64,000 bases of DNA from Minisyncoccota bacterium (GCA_028718635.1 JAQULK010000001.1:88626-152625), one strand, 5' to 3'. Positions 7,957-61,805 are shown, counted from the stretch's first letter. Notes: a model not told the origin generated them from the sequence alone. Numbers and translations are program-made.

Positions 7957-8748
7957 TTATAAATTTTTAGTTTCCTTAACTTTGACTTCAGCAACCTCTT
8001 TAATTTTTTTAATAATTTTTTCTCTATAATTTTTTCCTACAAGATCAAAAACAGCGAGTAAATCTTTATATGTGTTTTTTCCACCAAGAAAATCCCAATA
8101 TTCTTCTCCTATAAGAAAATCATTTTGATAATCCATCATATTTTGAACTGTAAAACGTGTATAGGGTTCTGGAGCATACGGATTATAAGGAAAAGCTAAA
8201 AATACTTTTACCGGTTTTCTTTTTCTGGCTATCCATTCCAACAATTTTGTCTTTGACTTCGTAAAAACATCAATATTAGGCTTCACTGTCTTTATTTCAA
8301 AATAAAACTCTTGTCCACTTCTTAACATATAAAAATCAACTATATTCCCCTCTTTTTGGTATTTACCATTATTAGAAGAAGCTTTTAACACTTCCCTTAT
8401 TTCTTGCTTAATATTAGCCTTTCTCTCTTTATTCCTAAGCTCTGTAATAATAGTTGAAATAATAGATTTTTGATCTTTTGAAAGTACTCCTCCCATACCA
8501 TAATTTCTAAAGCATTCCTTGGCTGTATTTTTTGCAATAATCACTGAAACATCTTCATATATAGACATACCTAGAGTCGTGGCTATTGAATGTACGAAGG
8601 AATAAGCAGCAACTTTTTCACTATCTTGAATTAGGCGGGATAAAAATGGCATAGATGTACTTTCTCTAGCGTATTTCTTTAATTTATTATCTATCTTTTT
8701 TTCTAATAAATGTTGTATTTCTTGTTTTTGTTCTTTAGATAAAGCCAT
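7957..8748 (-). CDS. putative type II restriction endonuclease
   Basis: About 263 aa from Met (MALSKEQ). Start abuts the stop of the upstream methyltransferase. No recognisable housekeeping motif. The call rests on position alone. Confidence 0.45.
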   Translation of the reverse strand: MALSKEQKQEIQHLLEKKIDNKLKKYARESTSMPFLSRLIQDSEKVAAYSFVHSIATTLGMSIYEDVSVIIAKNTAKECFRNYGMGGVLSKDQKSIISTIITELRNKERKANIKQEIREVLKASSNNGKYQKEGNIVDFYMLRSGQEFYFEIKTVKPNIDVFTKSKTKLLEWIARKRKPVKVFLAFPYNPYAPEPYTRFTVQNMMDYQNDFLIGEEYWDFLGGKNTYKDLLAVFDLVGKNYREKIIKKIKEVAEVKVKETKNL

Positions 8749-8752
8749 AAAT

Positions 8753-10327
8753 TTAAATTGATTTAAAATGAAAAATAATTTCTGAATACGGATTTCGATC
8801 ACGTTCCGTACGGTTTAATACTGGTCTCTTAAATTGATTTACTATCTTCATACCTGATTTTTTGGCAATTTCTGGATAAAGATTATATTTATCATTTGCT
8901 ACAAGAAAAATATCAAAATTATCTTTAAGATATTTTTTACAATTATTTAACACAGCTGAAATTCCTTCTACGTAAGATTTGCGGGCTTCTATCCCTTGCC
9001 CCTTAAAAAGCGGACCTATTTCTAAATTATCTTTACGTTTAAATCCAAGTAAATCATATGCGTAAGCATGTTGTTCGTGGTAATCAATTTGACCAACGTA
9101 AGGTGGTGAGCAAAATATTCCTGCTATTTTTTGCTTTTTTAGAATTTTTGAAAATTCTGGATTATTTTTTTCTACTTTTTCAAAAATATTTACTGTTCTT
9201 GAGTCGTTAGCTAATACAGAATAGTGAACTGGTTTACGTAATTTATTGAATTCCTTAATTCTATTTAAGGTATCAAGGGCATAACGATTAAGCATACTTG
9301 CTATTGAAAAAATAGGTTTACAAATTTTTTTATGCTTATAGCAATAATAAGTTGTAAGTTGTGGTTCTTTAAGAGTTGCTAAATCACTATGAGTAGTTGC
9401 ACGGCATGACCTAATTGTTCTACTTAAAATAAGTGCAAGAATTTTTCTAGTTTTAATATCTTTCTCTTTTTTTATTGTTTCAAAAACATGATCAATCTCA
9501 CGACGTACATTTTCTACAAACCACATATCAAGAAAAGAAGATTTTTTATCTTGTTTTATTTTTATTGAATACTTTTTAAGTAATTTTTGATAAATAGGTA
9601 AAAATTCTTTTTCTTTTTCAATAGCAAATTTACTTTCATTAAAGTTTCCTTGATTAACTTTATATTTAAAATCATATCCAGGGAAATTTATTAGATTAAA
9701 TTTAGCAAGTTCAACCAGAAGTTCTTTTTCAAAGTTCTGAACTTTATTATCATGCTCAAAAGAATCAAGAGAAGAAATTAATTTCTTTATAACCTTTGAT
9801 AAATATTCATAGTCATAATTGGTTGCTTTACAACTTGAAATCATACAATTAAACTCTGAAACATCTATCCCGATGGAATGAATACCCATCTCTAATGATT
9901 GAATAATTGTTGTCCCAGAACCCAAAAATGGATCAAGAATAATATCATTAGGCTTGAAATATATTTCTTTTTTAAAATCATCAATATGAGAATCTAAAAA
10001 ATATTCAACTAGTTGAGGAATGTATTTACCTTTATAGGGGTGTAATCGATGAACATGCTTTGTCGTATCTTTCTCACGCAAATTATCAAAAGAAAGTGTC
10101 CAATTTAAATCATTACCTAGATTTTTTTTCCAACTTTCTTCACGTTTGCCATTATATGAGTCATAATATTTTTTCAAATCGTTCAAATCAAGCATAGTTG
10201 ATCCATTCTCTCCATATTTTTTTACTTTTCCATATTGAACAAGATAAGAAATATTTGTTGGTTTAATTTCTTTTTCAAGAAAATCGGATGCCCATTTTGA
10301 TGCTTCTGGTATAGATACTAATGACAT
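8753..10327 (-). CDS. DNA amino-methyltransferase (N6-adenine or N4-cytosine)
   Basis: 524 aa. SAM-binding motif I DPFLGSGTT and catalytic motif IV SPPY, separated by about 280 aa. Confidence 0.75.
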   Translation of the reverse strand: MSLVSIPEASKWASDFLEKEIKPTNISYLVQYGKVKKYGENGSTMLDLNDLKKYYDSYNGKREESWKKNLGNDLNWTLSFDNLREKDTTKHVHRLHPYKGKYIPQLVEYFLDSHIDDFKKEIYFKPNDIILDPFLGSGTTIIQSLEMGIHSIGIDVSEFNCMISSCKATNYDYEYLSKVIKKLISSLDSFEHDNKVQNFEKELLVELAKFNLINFPGYDFKYKVNQGNFNESKFAIEKEKEFLPIYQKLLKKYSIKIKQDKKSSFLDMWFVENVRREIDHVFETIKKEKDIKTRKILALILSRTIRSCRATTHSDLATLKEPQLTTYYCYKHKKICKPIFSIASMLNRYALDTLNRIKEFNKLRKPVHYSVLANDSRTVNIFEKVEKNNPEFSKILKKQKIAGIFCSPPYVGQIDYHEQHAYAYDLLGFKRKDNLEIGPLFKGQGIEARKSYVEGISAVLNNCKKYLKDNFDIFLVANDKYNLYPEIAKKSGMKIVNQFKRPVLNRTERDRNPYSEIIFHFKSI

Positions 10328-14533: not shown

Positions 14534-15427
14534 CTACTGCTTTTTTTGACTAGATGTGAGGCGCAGTATGATTTCGTGCGCGGCACTTTGCGAGTCGGTA
14601 ATGACAACAGAATTGTCATCTGCAAAAACATACATCAAAGCCGGTTGGCCGTCTTTGCCGAAAAGAATTCGCGCATTTTTATTGTCAACAATGCCATCTT
14701 GAAAATCTTTCGTTAAAAGATCGTTTGTATCAGCTGAAAGATTTACTCCAAAAAATCCGTGCAGATCGGAAAACATTTTTCCTTCCCAGGCGCGCATGGC
14801 ATCAAAAATATCAGCAATGGAACGCATTTTAATCAAGATAAAGAAATCCTTATTCGTCGGAGCAGGAGCGGAACCGCTCTCGCTCGTCTCGCTCCCAGGT
14901 TCATTCACAACTCCCATTAAAAAATTATCATCAACTAAAAGTGTATTAGTGCTTGGGGTAAAATTACTCTCAGTCAAGGAAATGAATCTCCTGAGTCCGA
15001 TAATTTGTTTATTTTCTGTCAGATAAATCCCTTCGATGCCTCCAATTTTTACCTTTGTAGTATTAATTTCATTTTGGACAGCCTGTATTATTTCTTCTTT
15101 TTTCAATCCAAAAATTTCTAAAGGAACACTTTGATCGCTAAAAACGATCGGGGTAAACTGCTTTTCGACCACCACCGTGTTGTCTTCTTTCCTAAAGAGA
15201 AAAAAAAATAAAATTATTAAGGCAAAGACTATAAGAAAAAAACTGGCAAGCATAAAAAGCTTATTTTCCTTTGATTCTGGAGAAAAATTTTCTTTCTCCT
15301 TTTCGTGCTCTTCCTCTCCATGAATCATTTTTTTTACCAAGCCTTCTCTGTCATTCTTAAGCACCTCCGCCATGTCTTCGGCATAAGTCTCTACGATTTT
15401 ATTTTCTATTTTTTTATTTTTTTCCAT
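14534..15427 (-). CDS. hypothetical membrane protein
   Basis: 297 aa. Single TM segment (FFLIVFALIILFFFLF) after a charged N-terminus. Confidence 0.45.
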   Translation of the reverse strand: MEKNKKIENKIVETYAEDMAEVLKNDREGLVKKMIHGEEEHEKEKENFSPESKENKLFMLASFFLIVFALIILFFFLFRKEDNTVVVEKQFTPIVFSDQSVPLEIFGLKKEEIIQAVQNEINTTKVKIGGIEGIYLTENKQIIGLRRFISLTESNFTPSTNTLLVDDNFLMGVVNEPGSETSESGSAPAPTNKDFFILIKMRSIADIFDAMRAWEGKMFSDLHGFFGVNLSADTNDLLTKDFQDGIVDNKNARILFGKDGQPALMYVFADDNSVVITDSQSAAHEIILRLTSSQKKQ

Positions 15428-18808: not shown

Positions 18809-20557
18809 CTAATACACCTCCCCCTGATAACACCTCTCACAATACACAATCTCCTTCCTCTCCGGCGCATAAGAAGTCTCAAACTCTGTGGGGCATTTAC
18901 CTATATGGGTATGGGTAGTCTTCTCACACATGCAAGCTCTATGCCAGAGCTTTAAGGGATTTCTTTGTTTCAGTCTCTGGTAATGTCTGCAGTTAGGACA
19001 GAGATGAGGTAAGGGTAGATTCATTCTTTGGTAGAATTGGAGTTCTGGAGCAATGATTTTGAAGGCTTCGGTGCATTGTTCGTTGCATTTGCCTTGATGT
19101 TCGCATTCAATGACTTTTCCTAGAATAGATTCATCTACCTCTTTGATATTATCAGGAATGTCTTTTGTTTTAATGTCTATTGTATAGTTTCTTTCTTCTG
19201 CATCTTTCCACTTGTAACCTTGTTTAATAGCTTCTTCTTTAGTTAAAGGAAAGTATTCTTGAGCAATGGTTTCGTTGTAACAGAAAGGACTTAATTCTAC
19301 CGGAAAGAACTCTCCGTATTGGTAAATTCTGCCTTTACTATCTATGTAGGGCATATCATTCATGTGCTTGATGATTTTGGGGACCAAGGCTTCGTATTGT
19401 TCTTTGGTGTATTGGTGGTTTAGGATGCAGTAGGATTTGTTGTGTAAGCCAATGCAGCCAAAAAGATTATTGCAATTATCACAATCAATAGAATATGAAA
19501 CGTTAATTAAATTTAATCCATGTAAAGCACTTAAAATATTAGAACTAAAATCAACATTTAGAGATTCATAAGCTAATTCTCCTCCACTAACACCATATAC
19601 ATCACTAGTATCTTTCTGCCCTTTCACAGACCTAATGCTGTATCTAACATTATCAACTTCTGAAGTAAAATGTGACTTTTTAACATTTTTTGAGTTGTTA
19701 ATAAAATTACCGGTAGCATTAACATAATTTTTACCAATCATAAATTTATGAATAGCTGCGCTTTTTACTTTTTTATATTTATCAAATAATTCATTTAATC
19801 CGTCAGGTGATTTAAGGGAATTTAATAATGATTCTTTTGTTTTATTAAATTCTTCTTTTGAAACTACCTTATTTACAATACAAAATTGTTGATTGCGAAG
19901 ATTTGAAGAAAAAAGGCAATTCTGGCAATTTTTACAATCATACACAAACCAACAATCTATACAGTTTGCACAATCTTGAGCGAAAAAGGTTTGATAACAA
20001 TTATCAGAATTTATTAACTGAGAAGATAGTTCACATTTATTTATCCATGAATTATCAATGCAGTTTTTACTTTCCAATACAGTATCTCCGTACTGGCAAT
20101 TTTCTGAGTACCAACTGCCAAAAACCAAGTAGCAGTCTTTCATATCTACGCATATATTACAATAATTACTTCTTACTGGATTAATATTATATAAAGCATA
20201 TTTGGGAACTTTTTTATCAAGAGCATGGAATTGTTCAAAAAAAGATTTATTAAAATCATAATCTACTCCATAGTCTCTCGAATCCCAGTTAGCTTCATTT
20301 ATCCAATATTCTTTATCATAAATAATATAAGGGGATTCCGAAGAATACATACTTATTATTTTTTCTTTTGACTTTGAAGCACTGTTCTCTTTTTTATATA
20401 ATGCTCTTTCATTTCTAAACAACATTCTTCTTATCGTTCTGCACTCTGGGCAAAAAGTCGGCGGAGGGACATTAATTTTTTCATAAAACTTGAAATCATC
20501 CGGCTCTATCGTGAAATCCTTTTTGCAGTTTTGGCAATTTTTTGTTTCTGGCTCCAT
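18809..20557 (-). CDS. large Cys-rich protein with zinc-ribbon-like modules at both termini (paralogue 1)
   Basis: 582 aa. N-terminal CxxCxKxF..FYEK.N.P.P..CP.CR..RR module recurs at the C-terminus. Central CxxC-rich repeats. Paralogue at 22743..24422. Confidence 0.6.
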   Translation of the reverse strand: MEPETKNCQNCKKDFTIEPDDFKFYEKINVPPPTFCPECRTIRRMLFRNERALYKKENSASKSKEKIISMYSSESPYIIYDKEYWINEANWDSRDYGVDYDFNKSFFEQFHALDKKVPKYALYNINPVRSNYCNICVDMKDCYLVFGSWYSENCQYGDTVLESKNCIDNSWINKCELSSQLINSDNCYQTFFAQDCANCIDCWFVYDCKNCQNCLFSSNLRNQQFCIVNKVVSKEEFNKTKESLLNSLKSPDGLNELFDKYKKVKSAAIHKFMIGKNYVNATGNFINNSKNVKKSHFTSEVDNVRYSIRSVKGQKDTSDVYGVSGGELAYESLNVDFSSNILSALHGLNLINVSYSIDCDNCNNLFGCIGLHNKSYCILNHQYTKEQYEALVPKIIKHMNDMPYIDSKGRIYQYGEFFPVELSPFCYNETIAQEYFPLTKEEAIKQGYKWKDAEERNYTIDIKTKDIPDNIKEVDESILGKVIECEHQGKCNEQCTEAFKIIAPELQFYQRMNLPLPHLCPNCRHYQRLKQRNPLKLWHRACMCEKTTHTHIGKCPTEFETSYAPERKEIVYCERCYQGEVY

Positions 20558-20689
20558 AAAAAGATAGTATCACAAATTGCGCATTAAAAAAACTTTTATA
20601 ATTACTTCTGGCTTAGGTTTAAGCAAAGGCTATCCCTGCTAAGTTTTTTTAAAAAAATTAATTTTTAAAAATTATGCTAAAATAAAAAT

Positions 20690-21223
20690 ATGAAAAATAA
20701 AAATTTAGCAATTGTTCCGATTGAGATTATTGAAAATAAAATTTATCTTATAAGAAATGCAAAAGTAATGCTTGATAAAGATTTGGCTTTTTTGTATCAA
20801 GTGAAACCGATAGCTTTACGCCAACAGGTAAGAAGAAACAAAGAAAGATTTCCTAAAGATTTTATGTTTCAGCTTACAAATAAAGAAGTTGATTTCTTGG
20901 TATCACAAAATGTGATACCTTCGAGAAAAGTTTTAGGTGGCGCTCTGCCCTACGCTTTTACAGAACATGGTGTTACGATGCTATCTTCTGTGCTAAAAAG
21001 CAAAAAAGCGATTGAAGTAAATATCGCGATCATTAGAGCTTTTATAAAATTGCGAGAAATGTTGCAATCTCACAAAGATGTTTTGATTGAAATTGAAAAG
21101 ATAAAAAGAAATCAGAAAAAAGATGGTGAAAAAATTTCTGCTATCATAGATGTAATCAATAAACTCATGGAGCCAAAAGCAGACTTAAAAAGGAAATCAA
21201 TCGGTTTTAAAACAGGAAAATAA
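20690..21223 (+). CDS. ORF6N-domain (KilA-N-like) DNA-binding protein
   Basis: VMLDKDLAFLYQV...RFPKDFMFQLT...PYAFTEHGVTMLSSVL matches the ORF6N pattern. Confidence 0.55.
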   Translation: MKNKNLAIVPIEIIENKIYLIRNAKVMLDKDLAFLYQVKPIALRQQVRRNKERFPKDFMFQLTNKEVDFLVSQNVIPSRKVLGGALPYAFTEHGVTMLSSVLKSKKAIEVNIAIIRAFIKLREMLQSHKDVLIEIEKIKRNQKKDGEKISAIIDVINKLMEPKADLKRKSIGFKTGK

Positions 21224-21997
21224 ATGAAAATAATCAGCTGGAATACAAATGGTTTGAGGGCGACGGCAAAACAGGGATTTCTTGCTCCCCTTTTTGAGAA
21301 ATATAAGCCTGATATTTTGTGCTTGCAAGAGACAAAAGCCGAACCGGACCAGCTTCCAGAAGAAGTGCGCAACGTAAAAAATTATTATTCTTACTTTTCA
21401 CATCCAAAAATTAAAAAAGGATATAGCGGTGTGGCTATCTATTCAGCGGTTGAACCGCTGGAGATCTTCTATGGTATGGGAATAGAAAAATTCGACGAAG
21501 AAGGCAGATTGATCGGCGTTAAGTATAAAGATTTTACTTTGATAAATGTATATTTCCCAAACGGAGGCCAAGGACCGCACAGATTAAAATATAAATTAGA
21601 ATTTTATGATGCTTTTTTAAAATTTATTTTGAAACTGCGAAGAGACGGAGAAAATGTAATTTTCTGCGGGGACATAAACACTGCTCACACCGAGATAGAC
21701 CTCGCTCGCCCGAAAGCAAATGAAGAAAATACGGGTTTCCTGCCCATAGAGCGCGCATGGATAGATAAAGTAATAAAGAATAAATTTATCGATATCTTTA
21801 GAAAATTTTATCCAGAAAAAATAGGTGCTTACACGTATTGGGACATCAAAAGTCGCGCCCGAGACCGCAACGTCGGCTGGCGCATAGATTATTTTTTCGT
21901 TGATGAAAAGATGGTATCTAAAATAAAGTCTATTGGAATGCTAACTAATTACATGGGTTCAGATCACTGCCCGATTTGGCTAGAAATTAAGGAATGA
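21224..21997 (+). CDS. xth: exodeoxyribonuclease III
   Basis: 257 aa. WN.NGLRA, LCLQETK and SDHCP motifs. Confidence 0.85.
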   Translation: MKIISWNTNGLRATAKQGFLAPLFEKYKPDILCLQETKAEPDQLPEEVRNVKNYYSYFSHPKIKKGYSGVAIYSAVEPLEIFYGMGIEKFDEEGRLIGVKYKDFTLINVYFPNGGQGPHRLKYKLEFYDAFLKFILKLRRDGENVIFCGDINTAHTEIDLARPKANEENTGFLPIERAWIDKVIKNKFIDIFRKFYPEKIGAYTYWDIKSRARDRNVGWRIDYFFVDEKMVSKIKSIGMLTNYMGSDHCPIWLEIKE

Positions 21998-22120
21998 ATC
22001 CCGTTAGAAGTCTCCTAGTTAAACAAAGTCACAAAGAGTGATATAATAAGTTTGTATTTTTTATAGTCGTTATTAATAAATTAACTAACGGAAATCTAAA
22101 GATTTCCTACTTCTAACGGG
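21998..22120. repeat. family A element (~120 bp, CCCGTTAGAAGTCTCC...TCCTACTTCTAACGGG)
   Basis: Fills exactly the gap between the xth stop and the ATG of the downstream gene. Confidence 0.75.
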
Positions 22121-22738
22121 ATGAAAGCAGCTAGATTAGAAACTCTTGCAGACGGCATTTTTGCCATCGTGATGACAATCTTGGTTTTTCAAATTAGGCC
22201 GCCGGTTTTGGTGGATCCTACGAATGCCAAAGAACTTGCCTTCGCGATAAAACACATGCTCCCGATTTTCCTTAGTTATCTTTTAAGTTTTTCTCTGCTT
22301 TTTTCTTATTGGCGGGCACATCATTTCTTTGTTTCAGTTTATGCGAAAAATATTGACGTCAATCTGACGAATCTTAATGCGATTTTTTTCTTATTCCTCG
22401 CGCTTATTCCTTTTTCCACTTCTCTGCTCGGAGAGTATAGCAACAATCAATTTTCAATAGTTATTTTTGGCATTCATACCGTCATTATGGGTTTTTGTCT
22501 TTTTGCCATTCGCAGTTATGTGTTTAACTCCGATCATATAAAAAATATCGATGTCAGCAGACAAGAAATACGCCGTGGTACTGTCCGAACCTTTGTGCCT
22601 GTGGTTTTCGGTTTATTGGCAATTGTTCTTTCTTTTTTCAACAATTATCTATCTCTCGTTCTCTTTACCCTCGCTGTGATTTTCAACTTTTCTCAAACAA
22701 GTACTGTCTTTATAGATAAATTTATCAAAAATCTATAG
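22121..22738 (+). CDS. DUF1211/TMEM175-like membrane protein
   Basis: RLETLADGIFAIVMTILVFQI matches the RxxxFSDGV motif, followed by further TM helices. Confidence 0.65.
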   Translation: MKAARLETLADGIFAIVMTILVFQIRPPVLVDPTNAKELAFAIKHMLPIFLSYLLSFSLLFSYWRAHHFFVSVYAKNIDVNLTNLNAIFFLFLALIPFSTSLLGEYSNNQFSIVIFGIHTVIMGFCLFAIRSYVFNSDHIKNIDVSRQEIRRGTVRTFVPVVFGLLAIVLSFFNNYLSLVLFTLAVIFNFSQTSTVFIDKFIKNL

Positions 22739-22742
22739 TTAA

Positions 22743-24422
22743 ATGCAAAAAGTTTGTAAAACTTGTAAAAAAGATTTTGAGATACAACAGGACGATTTGA
22801 ATTTTTACGAAAAGATGAAGTCCCCTGCTCCAAGTCACTGTCCGACTTGCCGAATAATGCGCAGGCTTTGTTTTCGTAATGAGAGAACCCTTTACAAAAG
22901 AACTTGTAGTAAAAGTGGCAAACCCATTATTTCTTTATACCCAGAAAACACTCCCTTCCCTGTTTATGATCAACATATTTGGTGGGGTGATGAATGGGAT
23001 GGAATAGATTATGGACAAGATTATGATCCTAGCCGACCTTTTTTTGACCAATTCCTTGAACTTCGAAATAAAGTTCCGCGTATATCTCTTCTAAATATAA
23101 ATAGTATAAATAGCGAATATGGAAATAATATAGAGGATAGTAAAAATTGCTATTTAACATTTGCAGCGCAAAAAAATGAAGATTCAATGTACGGGAGACT
23201 AATATACAGAAGCCGTTTAGTGGTAGATTGTGATTTTACCCAAGATTCAGAACTCTGTTATGAATGCATAGATTGTAGAAAATGTTACCATTGCCTATTC
23301 TCAGATAGTTGTGAAACAAGTACAGATTTGCTTTTTTGTTTCAATTTGCGCGACTGCCAAAATTGCATTTTTTCTACGAATTTAAGGCATAAAAATTATC
23401 ATATTTTCAATCAACCAGTTTCAAAAGAAGAATATGAAAAACAGAAAAAAGAGATTTTTTCTTCGTATTCAAATTTAGAAAAAGCAAAACAAGAATATGA
23501 AAAATTTAAGAAAAAAGCCATTGTAAAATACTCGCATCAAGTGAAATGTAAAAACGCTACTGGAGATTATTTATATAATTCCCATGACACTAAATACGGT
23601 TTTGATGCTGAAAATACTAAAAACTGTAAATATATAGCAGATGCAGAAGGCACTGTTGATTGTTGGGACATGAATAACACTTACTATAAACCAGAACTCA
23701 ACTTAGATATGATGGGAGTTCTTCAAACTTACAATGTTAAACATTCTTTTTATATATTGTATTCCAGTAATATAGAATATTCTGAAAGTTTAAACAATTG
23801 TGAAAGTTGCTTTGGTTGTACCGGATTAAAAAAGAAAAAATATTGTATTTTAAATAAACAATACGAAAGAGAAGAATATGAAAAATTAAAAGAAAAGATT
23901 ATTGAAAACATGAAAAAGGAAGGCATTTATGGAGATTTTATTTCGCCTCAAATGAGTGTTTTTGGATACAACGAAACCTTGGCTCAAGAATATTTCCCAA
24001 TAACAAAACAAGAAGCCGAAGCAGGAGGCTTTAATTGGCAAGATCAGACTACTGGCACTTATGATAAAGAAACAATCAAAGAAGAAAATATGCCGGAAAC
24101 TATTTCTGAAGTTTCAGATGAAATTTTAAAAGAAATTTTGGTATGCCAAGATTGCAAAAAGAATTTTAGGATTACCAAATCTGAATTGGATTTTTATAAA
24201 AGAATGAATATTCCTCTGCCCCACAAAGATTTCGAATGCCGGCACAAAGACCGTATGAAAAAGCGCAATCCGCGGGAGCTTTGGCGCCGTTCTTGCATGT
24301 GCGAACTCAAAAACCACACTCATGGCACAGAAAAATGCGCAGTAGAATTTGAAACATCCTATTCTCCCAACAAACCAGAGACAGTTTATTGCGAACAATG
24401 TTATCAACAAGAAATATACTAG
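22743..24422 (+). CDS. large Cys-rich protein with terminal zinc-ribbon-like modules (paralogue 2)
   Basis: 559 aa. Collinear with 18809..20557. Same N- and C-terminal modules and central CxxC repeats. Confidence 0.6.
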   Translation: MQKVCKTCKKDFEIQQDDLNFYEKMKSPAPSHCPTCRIMRRLCFRNERTLYKRTCSKSGKPIISLYPENTPFPVYDQHIWWGDEWDGIDYGQDYDPSRPFFDQFLELRNKVPRISLLNINSINSEYGNNIEDSKNCYLTFAAQKNEDSMYGRLIYRSRLVVDCDFTQDSELCYECIDCRKCYHCLFSDSCETSTDLLFCFNLRDCQNCIFSTNLRHKNYHIFNQPVSKEEYEKQKKEIFSSYSNLEKAKQEYEKFKKKAIVKYSHQVKCKNATGDYLYNSHDTKYGFDAENTKNCKYIADAEGTVDCWDMNNTYYKPELNLDMMGVLQTYNVKHSFYILYSSNIEYSESLNNCESCFGCTGLKKKKYCILNKQYEREEYEKLKEKIIENMKKEGIYGDFISPQMSVFGYNETLAQEYFPITKQEAEAGGFNWQDQTTGTYDKETIKEENMPETISEVSDEILKEILVCQDCKKNFRITKSELDFYKRMNIPLPHKDFECRHKDRMKKRNPRELWRRSCMCELKNHTHGTEKCAVEFETSYSPNKPETVYCEQCYQQEIY

Positions 24423-24489: not shown

Positions 24490-24528
24490 AAAAAAGGCCC
24501 TCGACATACCGTCGAGGGCAACAATCTC
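24490..24528. terminator. bidirectional terminator hairpin GCCCTCGAC...GTCGAGGGC
   Basis: Between the convergent genes 22743..24422 (+) and 24544..25863 (-). Confidence 0.55.
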
Positions 24529-24543
24529 ACTGCTAGGCACTTG

Positions 24544-25863
24544 CTAATATACAACAATATCTAATTCTTTTTTAAGAGATTCATTTATCCATCTGAATTT
24601 TGCCCAGCGTTTGTAAACCTTTTTAGTTATATAGACATATTTTCCATTTTTTTTTCTTTTTCTAATTATGGGGGAATCAGTCTCTTCTATTAATTCATGC
24701 TTAATTTCCTTTATACTTATCCCCGATTTTATATGTGCATCAAAAACAAACTTTTCAAATATATCTTCAGGGCATCCTCCATCTAAGCGAGTGCGAGCAT
24801 TAACAAATTTCTTTACATCATATATGTTATGATCCATTCCTCCTTCTTCATTTTTATTGCTTGGGTCTACGAGTTGCATTTCAAACTGCCCGCCGTGAGA
24901 AGAAGAATGTAATTTGCCTGTTATAAATATTGCTTCAAATTTTTCATCTTTGGGAGCATTTGATATTTTTATTTTCCCAAATAATTTTTTCATTTGTGAT
25001 GTTGAAAAAAAAGACTTGTTTTCAATTTTTATATCAGTCGCCTTCATTGTTTTAGTGAGCCACTCATATAATTCAGGCAATAATTTTACTGCTTGGTCTT
25101 TTTCTATGGTTATTCTTGAAGCTATGCCATCTTTCAATGCAGCTTTCGCGTCTGAATCTGGCCTTGTGAGAAACTTAAGAATTATTTTTTCAAAATCCTT
25201 TGCTCGTGAGTTGATAGAACCTTCTAGATTACTGTCATTAATTGCGCGGAACCCTTGACCCGTTTCATTGTGATATTTACCGGAAAAAACAAGCGGGGTG
25301 TTTATTGTGGTCTCTCCCTCCGAAGGGGAAGAAACGAGAGCCCCCTCAAAATCTTCAGTGATTTTTTTTAACAACTGACTGTCATTTCTTAACGCCTCAT
25401 AGGTCGCTATCGTAGTCTTAACAATACGGCAATATTTTATTGATTGACTCAAACCTTCTTTGTCACCGGTCAACTTTGTTTTTTCTAAAATTTTAAAAAT
25501 ATCTTCTTTGGATTTTATAGAATCTACTCCTAAAAATAATTCTTTTTCAGAATATTTTAATGTGTCTCTTAAAAAATTCTTAGTTTGCTGAAAGGCGTAA
25601 TTTAAAAGAAAATATTTATCGCGAGATTCTGGGGATTTTCCATTGTCTAAAATAATTTTTGGATCAATCCCTGTTTCTTTTCTAATCCATTCGAGCATGC
25701 CTTCTCTTGTCAGACTGGGAGGAATTCCTGGAAAATCAATGGCTGTAGGCACAAATTCCTTGTCGACAGATTCCAGAGACCCATTCATTACGGCTTCCAT
25801 TAAAGCAAATTTCTTTTCTGGATTTTTGTATATTTCTCTTACTGGAATGCCCTCTAATTTCAT
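24544..25863 (-). CDS. hypothetical protein
   Basis: 439 aa. No confidently recognised motif. Contains a GC-rich palindromic insertion around 25300..25345. Confidence 0.45.
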   Translation of the reverse strand: MKLEGIPVREIYKNPEKKFALMEAVMNGSLESVDKEFVPTAIDFPGIPPSLTREGMLEWIRKETGIDPKIILDNGKSPESRDKYFLLNYAFQQTKNFLRDTLKYSEKELFLGVDSIKSKEDIFKILEKTKLTGDKEGLSQSIKYCRIVKTTIATYEALRNDSQLLKKITEDFEGALVSSPSEGETTINTPLVFSGKYHNETGQGFRAINDSNLEGSINSRAKDFEKIILKFLTRPDSDAKAALKDGIASRITIEKDQAVKLLPELYEWLTKTMKATDIKIENKSFFSTSQMKKLFGKIKISNAPKDEKFEAIFITGKLHSSSHGGQFEMQLVDPSNKNEEGGMDHNIYDVKKFVNARTRLDGGCPEDIFEKFVFDAHIKSGISIKEIKHELIEETDSPIIRKRKKNGKYVYITKKVYKRWAKFRWINESLKKELDIVVY

Positions 25864-45258: not shown

Positions 45259-45721
45259 GCAATTCAAAGTTCCACAATTTTTAGACATTGAAGATAAAAT
45301 ATTCGGCCCTTTTACTTTTAGGGAATTTGTTTATTTAGCCGGCGGGGCAGGCTTGTGTTTTATTCTTTATAAATTGCTGGGTCTTATTTTAGGAATAATA
45401 CCCATTTTAGCTGTCGCGGGATTTTCGCTCGCTCTTACTTTTTACAAACCAAATAATAAACCATTTATTAATATAATAGAATCAGGTTTTAAGTATTTTA
45501 CCCAAAATAAACTTTATATTTGGAAGAAAAAAGCAAATAAAACCACCTCTTCCCCCGCCTTCTCCAAAGGAGAAGGAGCCCTCTCCTTCGGGGAGGGTTT
45601 GGGAGGGGTAAACAAAATTCAAATGATGCATCCAGGCAGTTCCCCGTTGAGTGGGAGCAAGTTACGAGACTTGGCTTGGAGTTTAGATGTGCTGGACTTG
45701 AGTAAGCAACAATCCCGTTAG
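45257..45721 (+). CDS. PrgI-family (VirB3-analogue) membrane protein
   Basis: MQFKVPQFLDIEDKIFGPFTFREFVYLAGGAG followed by two TM helices. Lies immediately upstream of VirB4. In-frame palindromic insertion near the C-terminus. Confidence 0.55.
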   Translation: MQFKVPQFLDIEDKIFGPFTFREFVYLAGGAGLCFILYKLLGLILGIIPILAVAGFSLALTFYKPNNKPFINIIESGFKYFTQNKLYIWKKKANKTTSSPAFSKGEGALSFGEGLGGVNKIQMMHPGSSPLSGSKLRDLAWSLDVLDLSKQQSR

Positions 45722-45833
45722 AAGCCGCGGTCGCAGTTTAAAAAATATAAATATGTTAAATAGAAAAATAAAAATTAATAGAATAACAAAGCATAATCAC
45801 GGTCTGTTGACCGCGACCTGCTTCTAACGGGAT
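45711..45833. repeat. family A element (GAAGC subtype)
   Basis: Left inverted repeat contains the TAG stop of the PrgI-like gene. Right inverted repeat ends ...TAACGGGATG, giving the ATG of the next ORF. Inverse-orientation copy at 61725..61805. Confidence 0.75.
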
Positions 45834-52357: not shown

Positions 52358-52477
52358 CCCGTTAGAAGCAGATCGCGATCAACTCGCGTATCTGCCATAT
52401 TAAGTTATTAATTTTATTAATATTTGATTTCATGTTTTGTTTGTTTTTAAATTGCGATCGCGGCTTCTAACGGGATC
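52356..52477. repeat. family A element (GAAGC subtype)
   Basis: Fills the yidC-jag spacer. One end supplies the jag ATG (CTAACGGGATG on the minus strand). The other ends 5 nt before the yidC stop. Confidence 0.75.
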
Positions 52478-53250: not shown

Positions 53251-53544
53251 TTACTTCACAGAATCAATGTGATTTTTTTGCCAAGGATGGCAACGCAGAA
53301 TGCGTTTCAACCCTAAATAAATTCCTTTCCATGCGCCATATTTTTCTATCGCTTGTTTGGTGTATTCAGAACAAGATGGATAAAAAACACAAGTGTTCGC
53401 TTTCAAAAAAATTGAAATGTTTTTTTGATAAAAATTAATCCCGTTAGAAGCCGCCCTCGCTAGTAAGCGAGTGCTACAGTCACCCTGGGGCGACTTGCTT
53501 CTAACGGGATTAATTAAGTTTTGAAAGAATTGTTTTAATTTCAT
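53251..53544 (-). CDS. yidD: membrane protein insertion efficiency factor YidD with in-frame family A repeat
   Basis: C.FYPSCSEY...RILRCHPW signature. N-terminal residues [24 protein letters not shown] are encoded by repeat 53438..53512. Confidence 0.7.
53438..53512. repeat. family A element inside the yidD 5' region
   Basis: CCCGTTAGAAGCCGCCCTCGC...GCGACTTGCTTCTAACGGGAT. Right end abuts the rnpA stop codon. Confidence 0.75.
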
Positions 53545-53871: not shown

Positions 53872-54006
53872 TTAAACACTGAGTTTTTTTCTGCCCTTTT
53901 GACGTCTTCTTTTTAAGACCTTCTTTCCTGTTTTTATTCTAGATCTAACCAAGAACCCGTGAGCTCTGGCTCTTTTTCTTTTTTTAGGTTGGTATGTAAC
54001 TGACAT
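53872..54006 (-). CDS. rpmH: 50S ribosomal protein L34
   Basis: Not in the ORF track. Hand-translated as [44 protein letters not shown]. Confidence 0.85.
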
Positions 54007-54117
54007 TACTAGAGTCTATAATAAAAATTATAAAAATACAACCCCCTAATCCCCCTTATCAAGGGGACTTACAAAATTTTTCCTCCCTTGACAAGGGGAG
54101 GTCAGGAGGGGTTGAGT

Positions 54118-54137
54118 TTTATCCACAGTTTATCAAC
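54118..54137. promoter_or_regulatory. two tandem DnaA boxes (TTATCCACA then TTATCAACA)
   Basis: Perfect consensus 9-mer plus a 1-mismatch copy 2 bp downstream. Sits between rpmH and dnaA beside a GC-rich compound palindrome at 54035..54112. Confidence 0.6.
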
Positions 54138-54194
54138 AGAGTTAATAAGCTTTCAAAGATGTCTTCTATTTTAGAAATAGTATAATATGGAACT

Positions 54195-55532
54195 ATGAAC
54201 ACAAATCAATTGTGGAAAAGCTGTTTGCTAAAAATTGAGTCTGATATGTCTAAGGCAAATTTTAGCACTTGGTTTAAAAATACCTCTATTGCAAAAGAAG
54301 AAAACGGGATTGTTTATATAGGAGTGCCAAATGAATTTGTTCGTGATTGGCTTATAAATAAATATCATAAGCTTATAACCAAAACCATAGCTGAAAATTA
54401 TGAAAATATGCGCGCGGTGGAATATGTAATTACAAAAATAGAAAATTCTAAACAAGAAACAATAACAAGCGAAACTATAGAAAAAGAACTACCTTTGAGA
54501 GATTTATATATTAATCCGGAGAATAATCTAAATCCTCGCTACCATTTCAACTCTTTCATCGTGGGAACTTTCAATGAACTCGCCTATGCGGCAGCTCAGG
54601 CAATCATAGAGTCTCCGGGGACTAAATATAATCCATTTTTTATTTACGGCGGTACTGGTCTCGGAAAAACTCACTTAATTCAAGCTGTAGGAAATTCAGT
54701 AAAAGACAAATATCCCCATAAGAAAGTGCATTATATGACTCTGGAAAAATTCGCGACAGATTTTATAAACTCCCTTCAGAGTAATAAGGCAAATTCTTTC
54801 AAAGAAAAATACCGCAAATATGATCTTTTGATCATAGATGATATTCAATTTATCGGTAAAATGGAAAAAATTCAAGAAGAACTTTTCCACACATTTAATA
54901 CTTTTTATGAAAACAATAAGCAAATTATTTTTTCCTCTGATAAGCACCCTAATTACATTCCAGAACTAGCAGATCGTTTAAAATCACGTTTTGCTGCAGG
55001 AATGATAGTAGATGTCACTGAGCCGGAATACGAGTCTCGCCTTGCGATTATAAAAGTAAGGCTTCGTGAATTTAATATAGTCTTAGATGAAGATGTAATT
55101 GAATATGTCGCGTCATCTATCCAAGGGAATATCCGTGAACTTGAAGGGATCCTGAATCTTATTATTTGCCAATATCGCCTTAAAAATAAGGCTCCGGCAC
55201 TGCCTGAAGTCAAAAATTTGTTGAAAAATAGTATGAAACCAAAAAAGAATATAGCAATAAAAGATGTCGTAAAAATTGTGGCTGAGTATTATAAACTAGA
55301 AGAAATGTCTATATATGAAAAAACTAGAAAAAAAGAAATCGTAAAAACTAGACAAGTTATAATGTATCTGCTTCGAGAAGATTTCAGTGTCTCTTATCCA
55401 CTCATAGGGCAAAAATTAGGTGGAAAAGATCATACTACAGTGATGCATTCGTGTGTAAAAATAAAAGAAGATTTAAAAAATGATCCGCAATTAATACAAG
55501 AATTGGAACAAATAAGAATTTTGTTTAAATAA
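54195..55532 (+). CDS. dnaA: chromosomal replication initiator protein DnaA
   Basis: GGTGLGKTHL, LLIIDDIQF and C-terminal DNA-binding domain. TATAAT at 54181..54186 lies only about 8 nt before the ATG, possibly a leaderless transcript. Confidence 0.9.
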   Translation: MNTNQLWKSCLLKIESDMSKANFSTWFKNTSIAKEENGIVYIGVPNEFVRDWLINKYHKLITKTIAENYENMRAVEYVITKIENSKQETITSETIEKELPLRDLYINPENNLNPRYHFNSFIVGTFNELAYAAAQAIIESPGTKYNPFFIYGGTGLGKTHLIQAVGNSVKDKYPHKKVHYMTLEKFATDFINSLQSNKANSFKEKYRKYDLLIIDDIQFIGKMEKIQEELFHTFNTFYENNKQIIFSSDKHPNYIPELADRLKSRFAAGMIVDVTEPEYESRLAIIKVRLREFNIVLDEDVIEYVASSIQGNIRELEGILNLIICQYRLKNKAPALPEVKNLLKNSMKPKKNIAIKDVVKIVAEYYKLEEMSIYEKTRKKEIVKTRQVIMYLLREDFSVSYPLIGQKLGGKDHTTVMHSCVKIKEDLKNDPQLIQELEQIRILFK

Positions 55533-55677
55533 TTTAAAATAGTTATTAGAAAGTTATTAGACTTAAATTAAAAAAATAAATTTTAAAAATCATAATATTA
55601 ACCAATATAAAACATATTTATACACTTATTAACATCATTAATATTACTAATAAATTAAATATATAAAATATAAACAT
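55533..55677. promoter_or_regulatory. AT-rich dnaA-dnaN spacer, candidate DNA-unwinding element of oriC
   Basis: 145 bp, almost entirely A/T. Contains the DnaA-box-like TTATACACT. Confidence 0.45.
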
Positions 55678-56775
55678 ATGAAACTAGAATGCGGAGTGGA
55701 AAAAATTAAAAACGCAATTTCTCAAGTAGAAAGAATTACTGGAAAAAATTTAACTTTGCCGATCCTGAGTTCGATTTTACTAATTGCTTCCAAAAATTCA
55801 CTAAAACTAAGATCCACAAATTTAAATCTTGGAATTGAAGTCGAAATTCCTGTAAAAATAGAAAAAGAAGGTACTTTAGCCATTTCTGGTTCTATATTAA
55901 ACGCTGTTTTTTCTAATGTTTCTCAAAATGAAAATGTGTTTTTTGAAGATATAGACGGGAATTTATTGATTAAAACCAAAAAAAGCCAAATAAAACTAAA
56001 AAGCCAGCCTTGTGAAGATTTTCCAACAATTCCAAAAGTCACCGGGAATAGTTTTGAAATAGAATCAAGCAAATTGATCGATGGTATAAAAGCAGTTTAT
56101 TATAGTTCTTCTGTTTCAGATATAAAACCTGAGATTTCAAGTGTTTATATATATACCAATGAGGATAATTTAATTTTTGTTTCCACAGATTCTTTTAGAT
56201 TAGCTGAGAAGAAAGTAAAAGTAAAAGGTCTAGACGAAATTAGCGGAATTATTCTACCGTATAAAAACATAGGAGAAATATTAAAAGTTTTTGGAGAAAT
56301 TAAGGGTAATATAAAAGTGTGTTTTAATAAAAATCAAATTTCTTTTTCATCCGATAGGGTATATTTAACATCTAGAATAATTGACGGTATTTTTCCTGAT
56401 TATAGGCAGATTATCCCCAAAGATTCTATTACAGAGGTAGTGGTATTAAAACAGGATTTATTGAATGCTTTAAAACTTTCTAATGTTTTTTCAGATAAAT
56501 TTAATCAAGTAAACCTTAAAGTCGCACCAAAAGAAAAAGTTTTTGAACTTTCTTCCGCTAATAATGATATTGGAGAAAATAAAACATATTTAGATGCAGT
56601 AATAAAAGGAGAAAACGCCGAACTTAGTTTTAATTACAAATATTTTCTAGACTGTTTCCAATCAATAAACACTGATAGTGTTTCTATAAAATTGTCCGGA
56701 CATTCTCGTGCCATGGTTATCTCTCCTGTTTCTGATCCATCTTTTACTTATCTTATAATGCCAATGAATAGATGA
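55678..56775 (+). CDS. dnaN: DNA polymerase III beta sliding clamp
   Basis: 365 aa. Three-domain layout. Follows dnaA. Confidence 0.9.
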   Translation: MKLECGVEKIKNAISQVERITGKNLTLPILSSILLIASKNSLKLRSTNLNLGIEVEIPVKIEKEGTLAISGSILNAVFSNVSQNENVFFEDIDGNLLIKTKKSQIKLKSQPCEDFPTIPKVTGNSFEIESSKLIDGIKAVYYSSSVSDIKPEISSVYIYTNEDNLIFVSTDSFRLAEKKVKVKGLDEISGIILPYKNIGEILKVFGEIKGNIKVCFNKNQISFSSDRVYLTSRIIDGIFPDYRQIIPKDSITEVVVLKQDLLNALKLSNVFSDKFNQVNLKVAPKEKVFELSSANNDIGENKTYLDAVIKGENAELSFNYKYFLDCFQSINTDSVSIKLSGHSRAMVISPVSDPSFTYLIMPMNR

Positions 56776-56779
56776 TAAA

Positions 56780-57037
56780 ATGATTGAAATCAAGGACTTA
56801 TTAATCAGATTCAATAATATTCTTCTAGGAGAAGAAATTAAAAAAGAAATTATTAGAAAAACTATTTCTGAAATAATTAAAACAGAAATAAAATCAGAAG
56901 ATATACAGGTAAAAAATAATATAATTTATTTGAACATCAAACCAATTTATAAAAATGAAATTTTTATAAAAAAAGACAAAATTTTTTCAAAACTTGAGGA
57001 ATCTTTCGGTAAAAGAACTCCTACAGGCTTACTTTAA
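56780..57037 (+). CDS. small hypothetical protein downstream of dnaN (position typical of DUF721/recF-region proteins)
   Basis: 85 aa, Lys/Ile-rich. Position only. Confidence 0.3.
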   Translation: MIEIKDLLIRFNNILLGEEIKKEIIRKTISEIIKTEIKSEDIQVKNNIIYLNIKPIYKNEIFIKKDKIFSKLEESFGKRTPTGLL

Positions 57038-61724: not shown

Positions 61725-61805
61725 CCCGTTAGAAGCAGGTCGCGGTCAGACCGTGACTACTTAAATTAATATTATTAAAATTGCGACCGCGGCTTCTAAC
61801 GGGAA
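61725..61805. repeat. family A element (inverse copy of 45711..45833)
   Basis: Occupies exactly the 81 bp between the ruvB stop (TGA 61806..61808) and the ruvC ATG. Confidence 0.8.

Follow-up and report, generated by a model that had tools for sequence, protein, structure and literature searches.

In a 64,000-nucleotide (nt) stretch of DNA from a Minisyncoccota bacterium (GCA_028718635.1, JAQULK010000001.1:88626-152625; hereafter the window, with positions counted from its first letter), we analyzed two genes, A and B, that encode cysteine-rich proteins of about 570 amino acids (aa) belonging to a large protein family of the candidate phyla radiation (CPR, or Patescibacteria). The two genes lie as follows.

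18809..20557, minus strand: gene A, 582 aa (NCBI MDD5720925.1, PHT16_00530)
22743..24422, plus strand: gene B, 559 aa (NCBI MDD5720929.1, PHT16_00550)

The window sequences of both are identical to these NCBI entries, which come from a 671,958-bp sequence of a Candidatus Paceibacterota metagenome-assembled genome. The original prediction, made from the DNA alone, had described A and B as divergently transcribed, Cys-rich paralogues, and this was confirmed. They align over their full length (580 columns) with 41% identity (BLASTP, E = 2e-144), and Cys makes up 5.7% of each protein (33 of 582 residues in A, 32 of 559 in B). There is no third copy of the family within the 64-kb window, and the ~672-kb Paceibacterota genome from which it comes carries at least five paralogues (locus tags _00530, _00550, _02745, _03050 and _03205).

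Each protein has a pair of small finger or ribbon units at either end, F1 and F2 at the N terminus and F1' and F2' at the C terminus.

20387..20557, minus strand: A F1 (aa 1-57), treble-clef-type finger with C8, C11, C36 and C39, then a basic helix with R40, R43, R48, N49, E50 and R51
20273..20386, minus strand: A F2 (aa 58-95), degenerate second ribbon with N58, S61, D81 and Y84 at the four Cys positions
18938..19126, minus strand: A F1' (aa 478-540), C485, C495, C520/C523 and H525, with conserved R524, R528, R532 and N533
18812..18937, minus strand: A F2' (aa 541-582), terminal ribbon C542, C555-x17-C573-x2-C576, of CxxC-x17-CxxC / zf_Tbcl_2 type
22743..22904, plus strand: B F1 (aa 1-54), finger with C5, C8, C33 and C36
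22905..23009, plus strand: B F2 (aa 55-89), degenerate ribbon with C55 as the sole survivor of four Cys
24123..24290, plus strand: B F1' (aa 461-516), C468, C471, C499 and H501, with Asp at the position of C520 in A
24291..24419, plus strand: B F2' (aa 517-559), terminal ribbon C518, C532-x17-C550-x2-C553

The opening motif that had been read from the two sequences (CxxCxKxFxI..DD..FYEK..P.P..CPxCR..RR..FRNER) is present, and its cysteines are nearly invariant. In an alignment of 143 homologues, from which all conservation figures below are taken (A numbering), C8, C11, C36 and C39 are 99-100% conserved, and the finger cysteines overall are 93-100% conserved (these four; C485, C495 and C523, with H525; and C542, C555, C573 and C576). 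C520 is optional, being conserved in 75% of homologues and replaced by Asp in the subfamily of B. Conserved arginines follow each F1-type finger (R40, R43, R48 and R51; R524, R528 and R532). The two finger segments have net charges of about +5 and +4 and the remainder of the protein is mildly acidic, with no transmembrane helix, hydrophobic segment or signal peptide in the sequence.

A second copy of the opening module had been predicted to close both proteins. The copy is real: residues 4-55 of B align with residues 467-518 (42% identity over 52 aa, E = 5e-15), and profiles of F1 and F1' align with each other (hhalign 98.9%, E = 3e-17). It does not form the end of the proteins, however, which terminate with a further Cys/His ribbon of ~42 aa, F2'. 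The duplicated unit is in fact the whole double finger of ~85 aa, which aligns with the C-terminal ~100 aa (hhalign 99.2%, E = 3e-19, 76 columns), and the N-terminal F2 ribbon is homologous to the F2' tail (hhalign 94%). F2 has the form CxxC-x19-CxxC and retains all four Cys in 43% of the homologues; A has lost four of the four, and B three.

The F1 finger has the layout of a treble clef, i.e., two CxxC pairs about 20-25 residues apart, the second of which begins a helix, and in a structural model of A (AlphaFold2, described below) it comprises strands 4-7 and 14-17 followed by helices 19-27 and 37-46. When the BFVD database was searched with Foldseek, the top matches were small phage proteins annotated as 'putative zinc-ribbon domain', on which the finger superposes to within 0.6 Å over 41 residues (36% identity). 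F1 and F1' share with the Pfam family zf_Tbcl (PF13451, 'probable treble clef domain') the pattern CxxC...F...FY...P..CxxCR and, after it, a basic helix, but the known members are short, single-domain proteins, whereas here two copies flank a solenoid core of ~400 aa. F1 of B matched PF13451 with 18.8 bits (E = 0.0016), below the gathering cut-off of 24 bits; A gave no match at E ≤ 1, and 20 of 40 family relatives matched at E ≤ 0.1 (best E = 5.7e-6). Because these scores are sub-threshold, the finger is placed by its sequence with zf_Tbcl at the superfamily level only.

The tail is distantly related to the CxxC-x17-CxxC finger families. It shares with TIGR04272/PF23477 the C-x17-CxxC spacing and the motif 'F.TSY.P.R.E.VYC..C', but its first knuckle is not CxxC (in A, C555-x17-C573-x2-C576 is preceded by a first pair C542...C555), and F2 is degenerate in both A and B. 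Scores against zf_Tbcl_2 were again sub-threshold (14.2 bits for the tail of B and 14-17 bits overall, vs a Pfam cut-off of 27, with five of 40 relatives matching at E ≤ 0.1), and neither A nor B matched TIGR04272 (NCBIfam cut-off 36 bits). In small proteins of Methanosarcina mazei, the CxxC-x17-CxxC domain's zinc binding has been found by inductively coupled plasma mass spectrometry (PMC12704099). Taken together, these results support the proposal of zinc-finger-type modules at both termini.

Between the fingers lie two solenoids and an aromatic-rich domain.

19853..20188, minus strand: A solenoid 1 (aa 124-235), about eight 12-residue coils whose inward positions 1, 4, 7 and 10 carry Cys/Ser/Asn, and cap LRNxxFCIVNKVVSKEE
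19400..19735, minus strand: A solenoid 2 (aa 275-386), copy of solenoid 1; no other part of the family varies as much
19127..19399, minus strand: A helix and aromatic-rich domain (aa 387-477), 'YGEFFPxELSPFxYNETxAQEYFP', modeled with a predicted local distance difference test score (pLDDT) of 90-98
23094..23429, plus strand: B solenoid 1 (aa 118-229), with the run C172-x2-C175-x2-C178-x2-C181-x2-C184
23538..23873, plus strand: B solenoid 2 (aa 266-377), internal duplication in 12-residue register
23874..24122, plus strand: B helix and aromatic-rich domain (aa 378-460), conserved

The architecture is therefore [F1+F2] - linker - [solenoid 1 + helices] - [solenoid 2 + helix] - aromatic-rich domain - [F1'+F2']. 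The many central CxxC motifs pointed out in the original prediction do exist, but they are ladder positions of a solenoid with periods of 3 and 12 residues, and not zinc knuckles. The two central halves are duplicates of each other (27% identity over 123 aa, E = 7e-13; at the profile level, hhalign 99.8%, E = 6e-30), and autocorrelation of the column profile peaked at 12 and 24, with a sub-period of 3 residues. In the 12-residue register each half has ~8 coils, with Cys, Ser, Asn or Asp at positions 1, 4, 7 and 10, and is capped by 'LRNKxYCI(L/F)NKQYxKEEY' plus a helix. Across the 143 homologues the solenoids are variable and the finger units and aromatic-rich domain conserved, the latter being one of the two best-conserved parts of the protein.

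A beta-helix-like middle had been suggested as something for which an AlphaFold model might be examined, and the model of A, built from 143 sequences, supports it at the level of a prediction (pLDDT 87.4; predicted template modeling score, pTM, 0.89). The fingers and aromatic-rich domain were modeled with pLDDT >90, solenoid 2 with 74-88 and solenoid 1 with 70-75; part of solenoid 2 has beta-bridges at a 6-residue spacing. This model supersedes one of B made from 40 sequences, which had a pLDDT of 73 and a poor center. Searching the PDB with the model of A using Foldseek gave no significant match. Of the 28 weak matches, 25 were to left-handed beta-helix proteins, with 150-190 columns aligned (best E = 0.75, root-mean-square deviation 11-13 Å, TM score 0.1-0.2), a result that is consistent with a solenoid outside any solved class. 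The left-handed beta-helices of gamma-carbonic anhydrases, LpxD, DapD and GlmU recurred among these non-significant matches, but their coil has 18 residues and that of the family 12, and the family has neither a Hexapep Pfam match nor the active-site residues of acyltransferases or carbonic anhydrases. A purely structural analogy is the antifreeze protein of Tenebrio molitor, a beta-helix with 12-residue Cys-rich coils, which is likewise a very narrow solenoid with interior Cys spaced i/i+6. However, the family lacks a TxT ice-binding face, a signal peptide and any homology to the beetle proteins, no antifreeze protein was among the Foldseek matches, the core Cys of the family are exchangeable with Ser/Asn and need not be disulfide-bonded, and it has two solenoids plus zinc fingers.

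The Cys-laden coils raise the question of a metal or redox protein, in which runs of C-x2-C-x2-C(-x2-C) would ligate iron-sulfur clusters or a stack of metal ions for electron transfer, metal storage or redox sensing. The Cys content of 5.7% invites this explanation, as do coils such as CrNCqNCfgC, in which all four inward positions are filled with Cys, the 94-99% conservation of three central cysteines (C211, C214 and C368), and a weak, chance-level match (E = 0.15) to epoxyqueuosine reductase, in its ferredoxin domain. Apart from those three, however, most of the Cys in the central part reach only 37-79% conservation, with Ser, Leu, Met or Val taking their place in other homologues, the coils that bear Cys differ between A and B, no Fer4, radical-SAM or other metallo-enzyme model in Pfam or NCBIfam matched at E ≤ 1, and the PDB yielded no match in sequence or fold (a single-sequence search returned nothing real, its sole match being the one at E = 0.15, and a profile search returned none). 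We consider a metal or redox role very unlikely, and an iron-sulfur or radical-SAM identity was rejected because of the low conservation of the central Cys and the lack of a matching Pfam or NCBIfam model. Instead, we infer that the interior of these very narrow solenoids is tightly packed with the central Cys, Ser and Asn, which would not be catalytic or redox centers. Metal binding, which the original prediction had offered as one possible function, thus holds in part: zinc is likely only for the terminal fingers, and the central Cys do not behave as obligate ligands. The ~400-aa core is covered neither by a family in Pfam or NCBIfam nor by a fold in the PDB, and searches of all three resources with the proteins gave no match to a well-characterized family, radical-SAM and ferredoxin-type proteins included.

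In an exhaustive profile search, the family comprised 5,440 clusters (at the 50% identity level) when E ≤ 1e-3 was required, of which 2,329 reached E ≤ 1e-30; among the best 150, nearly all were full length. A and B each retrieve thousands of Patescibacteria proteins, which are either called 'hypothetical' or unnamed, and at least 559 relatives were confirmed, from 600 stretches examined (one genome per species). A check of its distribution across the CPR had been suggested, and all of the best 80 loci (80/80) belong to CPR lineages, which include Paceibacterota, Nomurabacteria, Peregrinibacteria/Peribacteria, Gracilibacteria, Abawacabacteria, Liptonbacteria, Giovannonibacteria, Jorgensenbacteria and Staskawiczbacteria. 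There were no copies on viral contigs or in the phage genomes searched. Two members (P0127 and P0220; NDI62_02115 and NDI62_01975), on one contig of 267,744 bp, are labeled 'Burkholderiales bacterium' in NCBI; since the family is otherwise confined to CPR bacteria, this contig is probably mis-binned or mislabeled Patescibacteria sequence. Within the family, A belongs to the largest subfamily, and B to a distinct, well-conserved orthologue group with 57-81% identity across many Paceibacterota.

We surveyed 82 loci of up to 14 kb each, which together contain 206 open reading frames (ORFs) of the family. Fifty of the 82 loci have at least two copies, and some have as many as eight, arranged head-to-tail and usually co-oriented. 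Overlong tblastn matches, considered as possible inteins or inserted domains, turned out to be such tandem paralogues. The median best identity was 43% within a locus and 55% between loci, and 131 of the 142 array members had their nearest relative in another genome, which shows that the paralogues are ancient. The family is thus real, huge, CPR-restricted and soluble/cytoplasmic, and it is among the largest uncharacterized CPR-wide families. The original prediction of a candidate novel family stands in that the family is uncharacterized, but A and B are not a pair peculiar to this locus: the family is CPR-wide, tandem-arrayed and linked to a VirD4/TraD-like ATPase. A literature search, which included the CPR protein-family preprint of Meheust et al., found no description of it. 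Its building blocks are of known kinds; its architecture, its expansion and its ATPase linkage are undescribed.

The linkage to the ATPase emerged when the 659 non-family neighbor genes of the 82 loci were clustered. A soluble P-loop ATPase of the VirD4/TraD/HerA type is encoded by 26 genes in 20 of the loci, in both Paceibacteria and Peregrini/Peribacteria. It directly adjoins a family gene 17 times, nearly always in the same orientation and mostly with gaps of 6-96 nt; the subfamily of A, the one that most often adjoins the ATPase in other genomes, accounts for eight of these 17 adjacencies. The ATPase matches T4SS-DNA_transf, TrwB_AAD_bind, TraG-D_C and DUF87/HerA, although it falls far below all equivalog cut-offs. 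A form of ~700 aa, usually encoded between dnaK and dnaJ, itself carries a CxxC-x17-CxxC finger (49.5 bits vs the NCBIfam cut-off of 36), inserted near aa 450 (for example in L081, 5289-7421; also in L029, L030, L061, L062 and L079). The best 120 homologues of this form (P0397-P0516) all have PF23477, all come from CPR bacteria, and are 71-87% identical. Database annotation of this form goes no further than 'type IV secretion system DNA-binding domain' or 'DUF87'.

The nearest known parallel to such a partnership would be the coupling proteins of type IV secretion (VirD4/TraD/TrwB) with their accessory proteins, e.g., TraM-TraD, where a hexameric translocase works with substrate-selecting DNA-binding adaptors. 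This is a proposed analogy, and there are differences: the CPR ATPase appears to be soluble, chromosomal and highly conserved, it is embedded in a dnaK operon and not in a conjugative element, it has no adjacent channel components, and its partnership with the family is drawn from gene order only. If the likeness to coupling proteins were taken literally, the arrayed paralogues might be cargo, i.e., effector-like substrates that the ATPase passes to a secretion or transfer apparatus for delivery into host cells. Diversified arrays next to a VirD4/TraD-like ATPase, in bacteria that are host-dependent, as CPR bacteria are, would fit with this. Yet the ATPase sequences read have no N-terminal transmembrane anchor, no VirB-type channel genes were found among the recurrent neighbors, the paralogues are ancient with stable orthologues and not fast-evolving, the conservation of the ATPase is like that of a housekeeping protein, and zinc-locked fingers and solenoids would make poor substrates for unfolding. 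We therefore regard a role as cargo as improbable.

Chaperone genes are a second recurrent neighbor, with DnaK in 10 and DnaJ in nine of the 82 loci, and also GrpE. In Paceibacteria the typical layout is dnaK - x - ATPase - FAM - FAM - ATPase - dnaJ, where FAM is a family gene, and the block grpE - dnaK - ATPase - FAM - FAM - ATPase - dnaJ recurs on one strand. The recurrence of this block, together with the fact that DnaJ has a Cys-rich zinc domain of its own, might suggest that the family assists DnaK/DnaJ/GrpE in proteostasis or stress. Its members could then be zinc-finger holdases, say, or co-chaperones specific to certain clients, and the ATPase an unfoldase-like partner. However, arrays in Peregrini/Peribacteria have no dnaK linkage and are accompanied instead by the ATPase and a TrmB-like regulator, the copies in the window are not near chaperone genes, and the alignment contains no CXXCXGXG motif, nor did PF00684 match A, B or 40 relatives. 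A chaperone function appears distinctly unlikely.

The TrmB-type protein, with a helix-turn-helix (HTH) domain, is encoded divergently at 15 loci and is a candidate for a dedicated regulator. The layout in Peregrini/Peribacteria is a TrmB gene pointing away from FAM FAM FAM ATPase, and a TrmB-type HTH protein of ~258 aa is encoded just upstream of family genes or arrays there (L010, L013, L019, L023 and L071). It is also found at loci with orthologues of B (L001, L002, L004, L007 and L008), and is absent from the window.

ScpB is among the neighbors of the family in five loci, which bears on a structural or cytoskeletal explanation, in which the solenoid rods would polymerize or bundle like bactofilins and the end fingers would make head-to-tail contacts or bridge DNA. 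Two solenoids with homologous finger units at both ends, and a high copy number, would suit such a role. On the other hand, the family resembles neither bactofilin nor other families that form polymers, many divergent paralogues would be unexpected for a homopolymer, and the pTM of 0.89 suggests a compact multidomain body and not an open rod, so that we judge this explanation highly improbable. A reading as a defense system or mobile element was also dropped, because there was nothing to sustain it in the PADLOC models, the viral contigs or the phage genomes; PADLOC gave zero families for A and B, and for the ATPase only weak mad8/HerA matches.

The explanation that we favor, tentatively and at somewhat less than even probability, is that these are zinc-stabilized adaptor or recognition proteins that work with the neighboring VirD4/TraD-like ATPase. 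We prefer it because of the fingers with their likely structural zinc, the Arg-rich helices, the presumed Cys/Ser/Asn solenoid core and the variable outer faces. Each terminal finger would hold one structural zinc, giving three sites in A and in B, and four where F2 is intact. The Arg-rich finger helices, which are basic and conserved, would form a site for nucleic acid, or possibly for a different acidic partner, at each end of a rigid body; in other treble-clef fingers, such as GATA and nuclear-receptor DNA-binding domains, it is the helix after the second Cys pair that makes the contacts. The outward faces of the solenoids, which differ between paralogues, would supply target specificity, and the paralogues would be interchangeable adaptor or recognition subunits of the translocase-type ATPase. 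Together, ATPase and adaptors might serve a core CPR process of DNA or RNA handling, which in Paceibacteria would be co-expressed with the dnaK operon.

Several observations weigh against the adaptor explanation. What functional support there is comes entirely from gene neighborhood, in loci that are phylogenetically non-independent, and neither nucleic-acid binding nor partnership with the ATPase is backed by homology to a characterized protein. None of the 17 ATPase adjacencies involves the subfamily of B, and in the window there is no ATPase, TrmB or dnaK/dnaJ gene near A or B. Hidden Markov models of the family modules (F1, F1', the tail, the solenoids and the aromatic-rich domain) found no matches among all the non-family neighbors, so the fingers of those neighbors are only distantly related to those of the family. 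The Pfam finger matches of A and B lie below gathering thresholds, solenoid 1 was modeled with a pLDDT of only 70-75, and in some paralogues the central Cys might still be metal ligands. A bolder extension of the adaptor explanation, which we regard as unlikely, is a CPR-wide core machine, in which a soluble hexameric translocase is programmed by five to ten or more interchangeable, cargo-selecting zinc-finger/solenoid adaptors. Each adaptor would choose a cargo of its own, nucleic acid or protein, and the machine might, for example, process or traffic DNA or RNA that the bacteria scavenge from a host or exchange with it. Likewise unlikely, though of structural interest, is that metal ions are bound inside the solenoid by those 12-residue coils in which four Cys face inward.

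In the window itself, A and B appear to be dispersed solo copies. The original prediction had them bracketing an ORF6N-xth-DUF1211 block, and Pfam indeed identified an ORF6N gene, an xth (Exo_endo_phos) nuclease and a DUF1211/TMEM175 protein between the two divergent genes. The arrangement is not conserved, however, in that an 85%-identical orthologue of A in a related genome is flanked by a pilB-like gene and polA, so that the bracketing is incidental. A lies upstream of rpsO-NYN-pnp on the same strand, and is probably co-transcribed with these genes since the gap is 39 nt; similarly, B starts 4 nt downstream of the DUF1211 gene and, because of this short gap, is probably co-transcribed with it. 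The ORF6N gene adjoining A occupies 20690-21223. ORF6N-domain genes (cluster c21) also occur beside or between family genes in Peribacteria arrays (three in L015, one in L025), and for this reason the adjacency of A and ORF6N may be a recurrent, possibly mobile, association.

Other features of the window include two ORFs, both on the minus strand, without a Pfam family at E ≤ 1e-3. One, of 439 aa (24544-25863), faces B in convergent orientation and has a strong GC-rich hairpin terminator (24497-24519) at its end; the other has 297 aa (14534-15427). A scan of the window for promoters and terminators gave counts near those of shuffled sequences. A short intergenic element is present in five copies (22000-22120, 45714-45831, 52358-52474, 53440-53508 and 61725-61803) and is bounded by the inverted repeat CCCGTTAGAAG(T/C), whose arm was matched 10 times vs 0.22 expected. 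The copy between xth and DUF1211 has a folding energy of -34.3 kcal/mol (z = -5.4). The element looks like a MITE-like or REP-like repeat (i.e., a miniature inverted-repeat transposable element or a repetitive extragenic palindrome), and is probably the 'family A repeat' that the original prediction had placed between the two genes. The GC content of the window is ~0.37 overall and dips to 0.276 at 8001-10000 and to ~0.30 at 54001-58000, regions that may hold horizontally acquired or surface/glycosylation-type genes.

CPR genomes are tiny (0.6-1.3 Mb), and retaining from five to more than eight ancient paralogues of a 570-aa protein takes up ~1-3% of their coding capacity. No curated database names the family. 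From a structural point of view, the family is of interest for its cytoplasmic beta-solenoid, with 12-residue coils and a ladder of Cys, and for its double-zinc-finger unit, which might act as a bipartite clamp. It also gives biochemists a tangible and readily expressed protein to work on, in a lineage whose conserved proteins of unknown function are mostly unstudied. The upkeep of these paralogues across Paceibacteria, Peregrinibacteria and Gracilibacteria, together with a highly conserved translocase-type ATPase, suggests that the family is likely to be central to episymbiont life.

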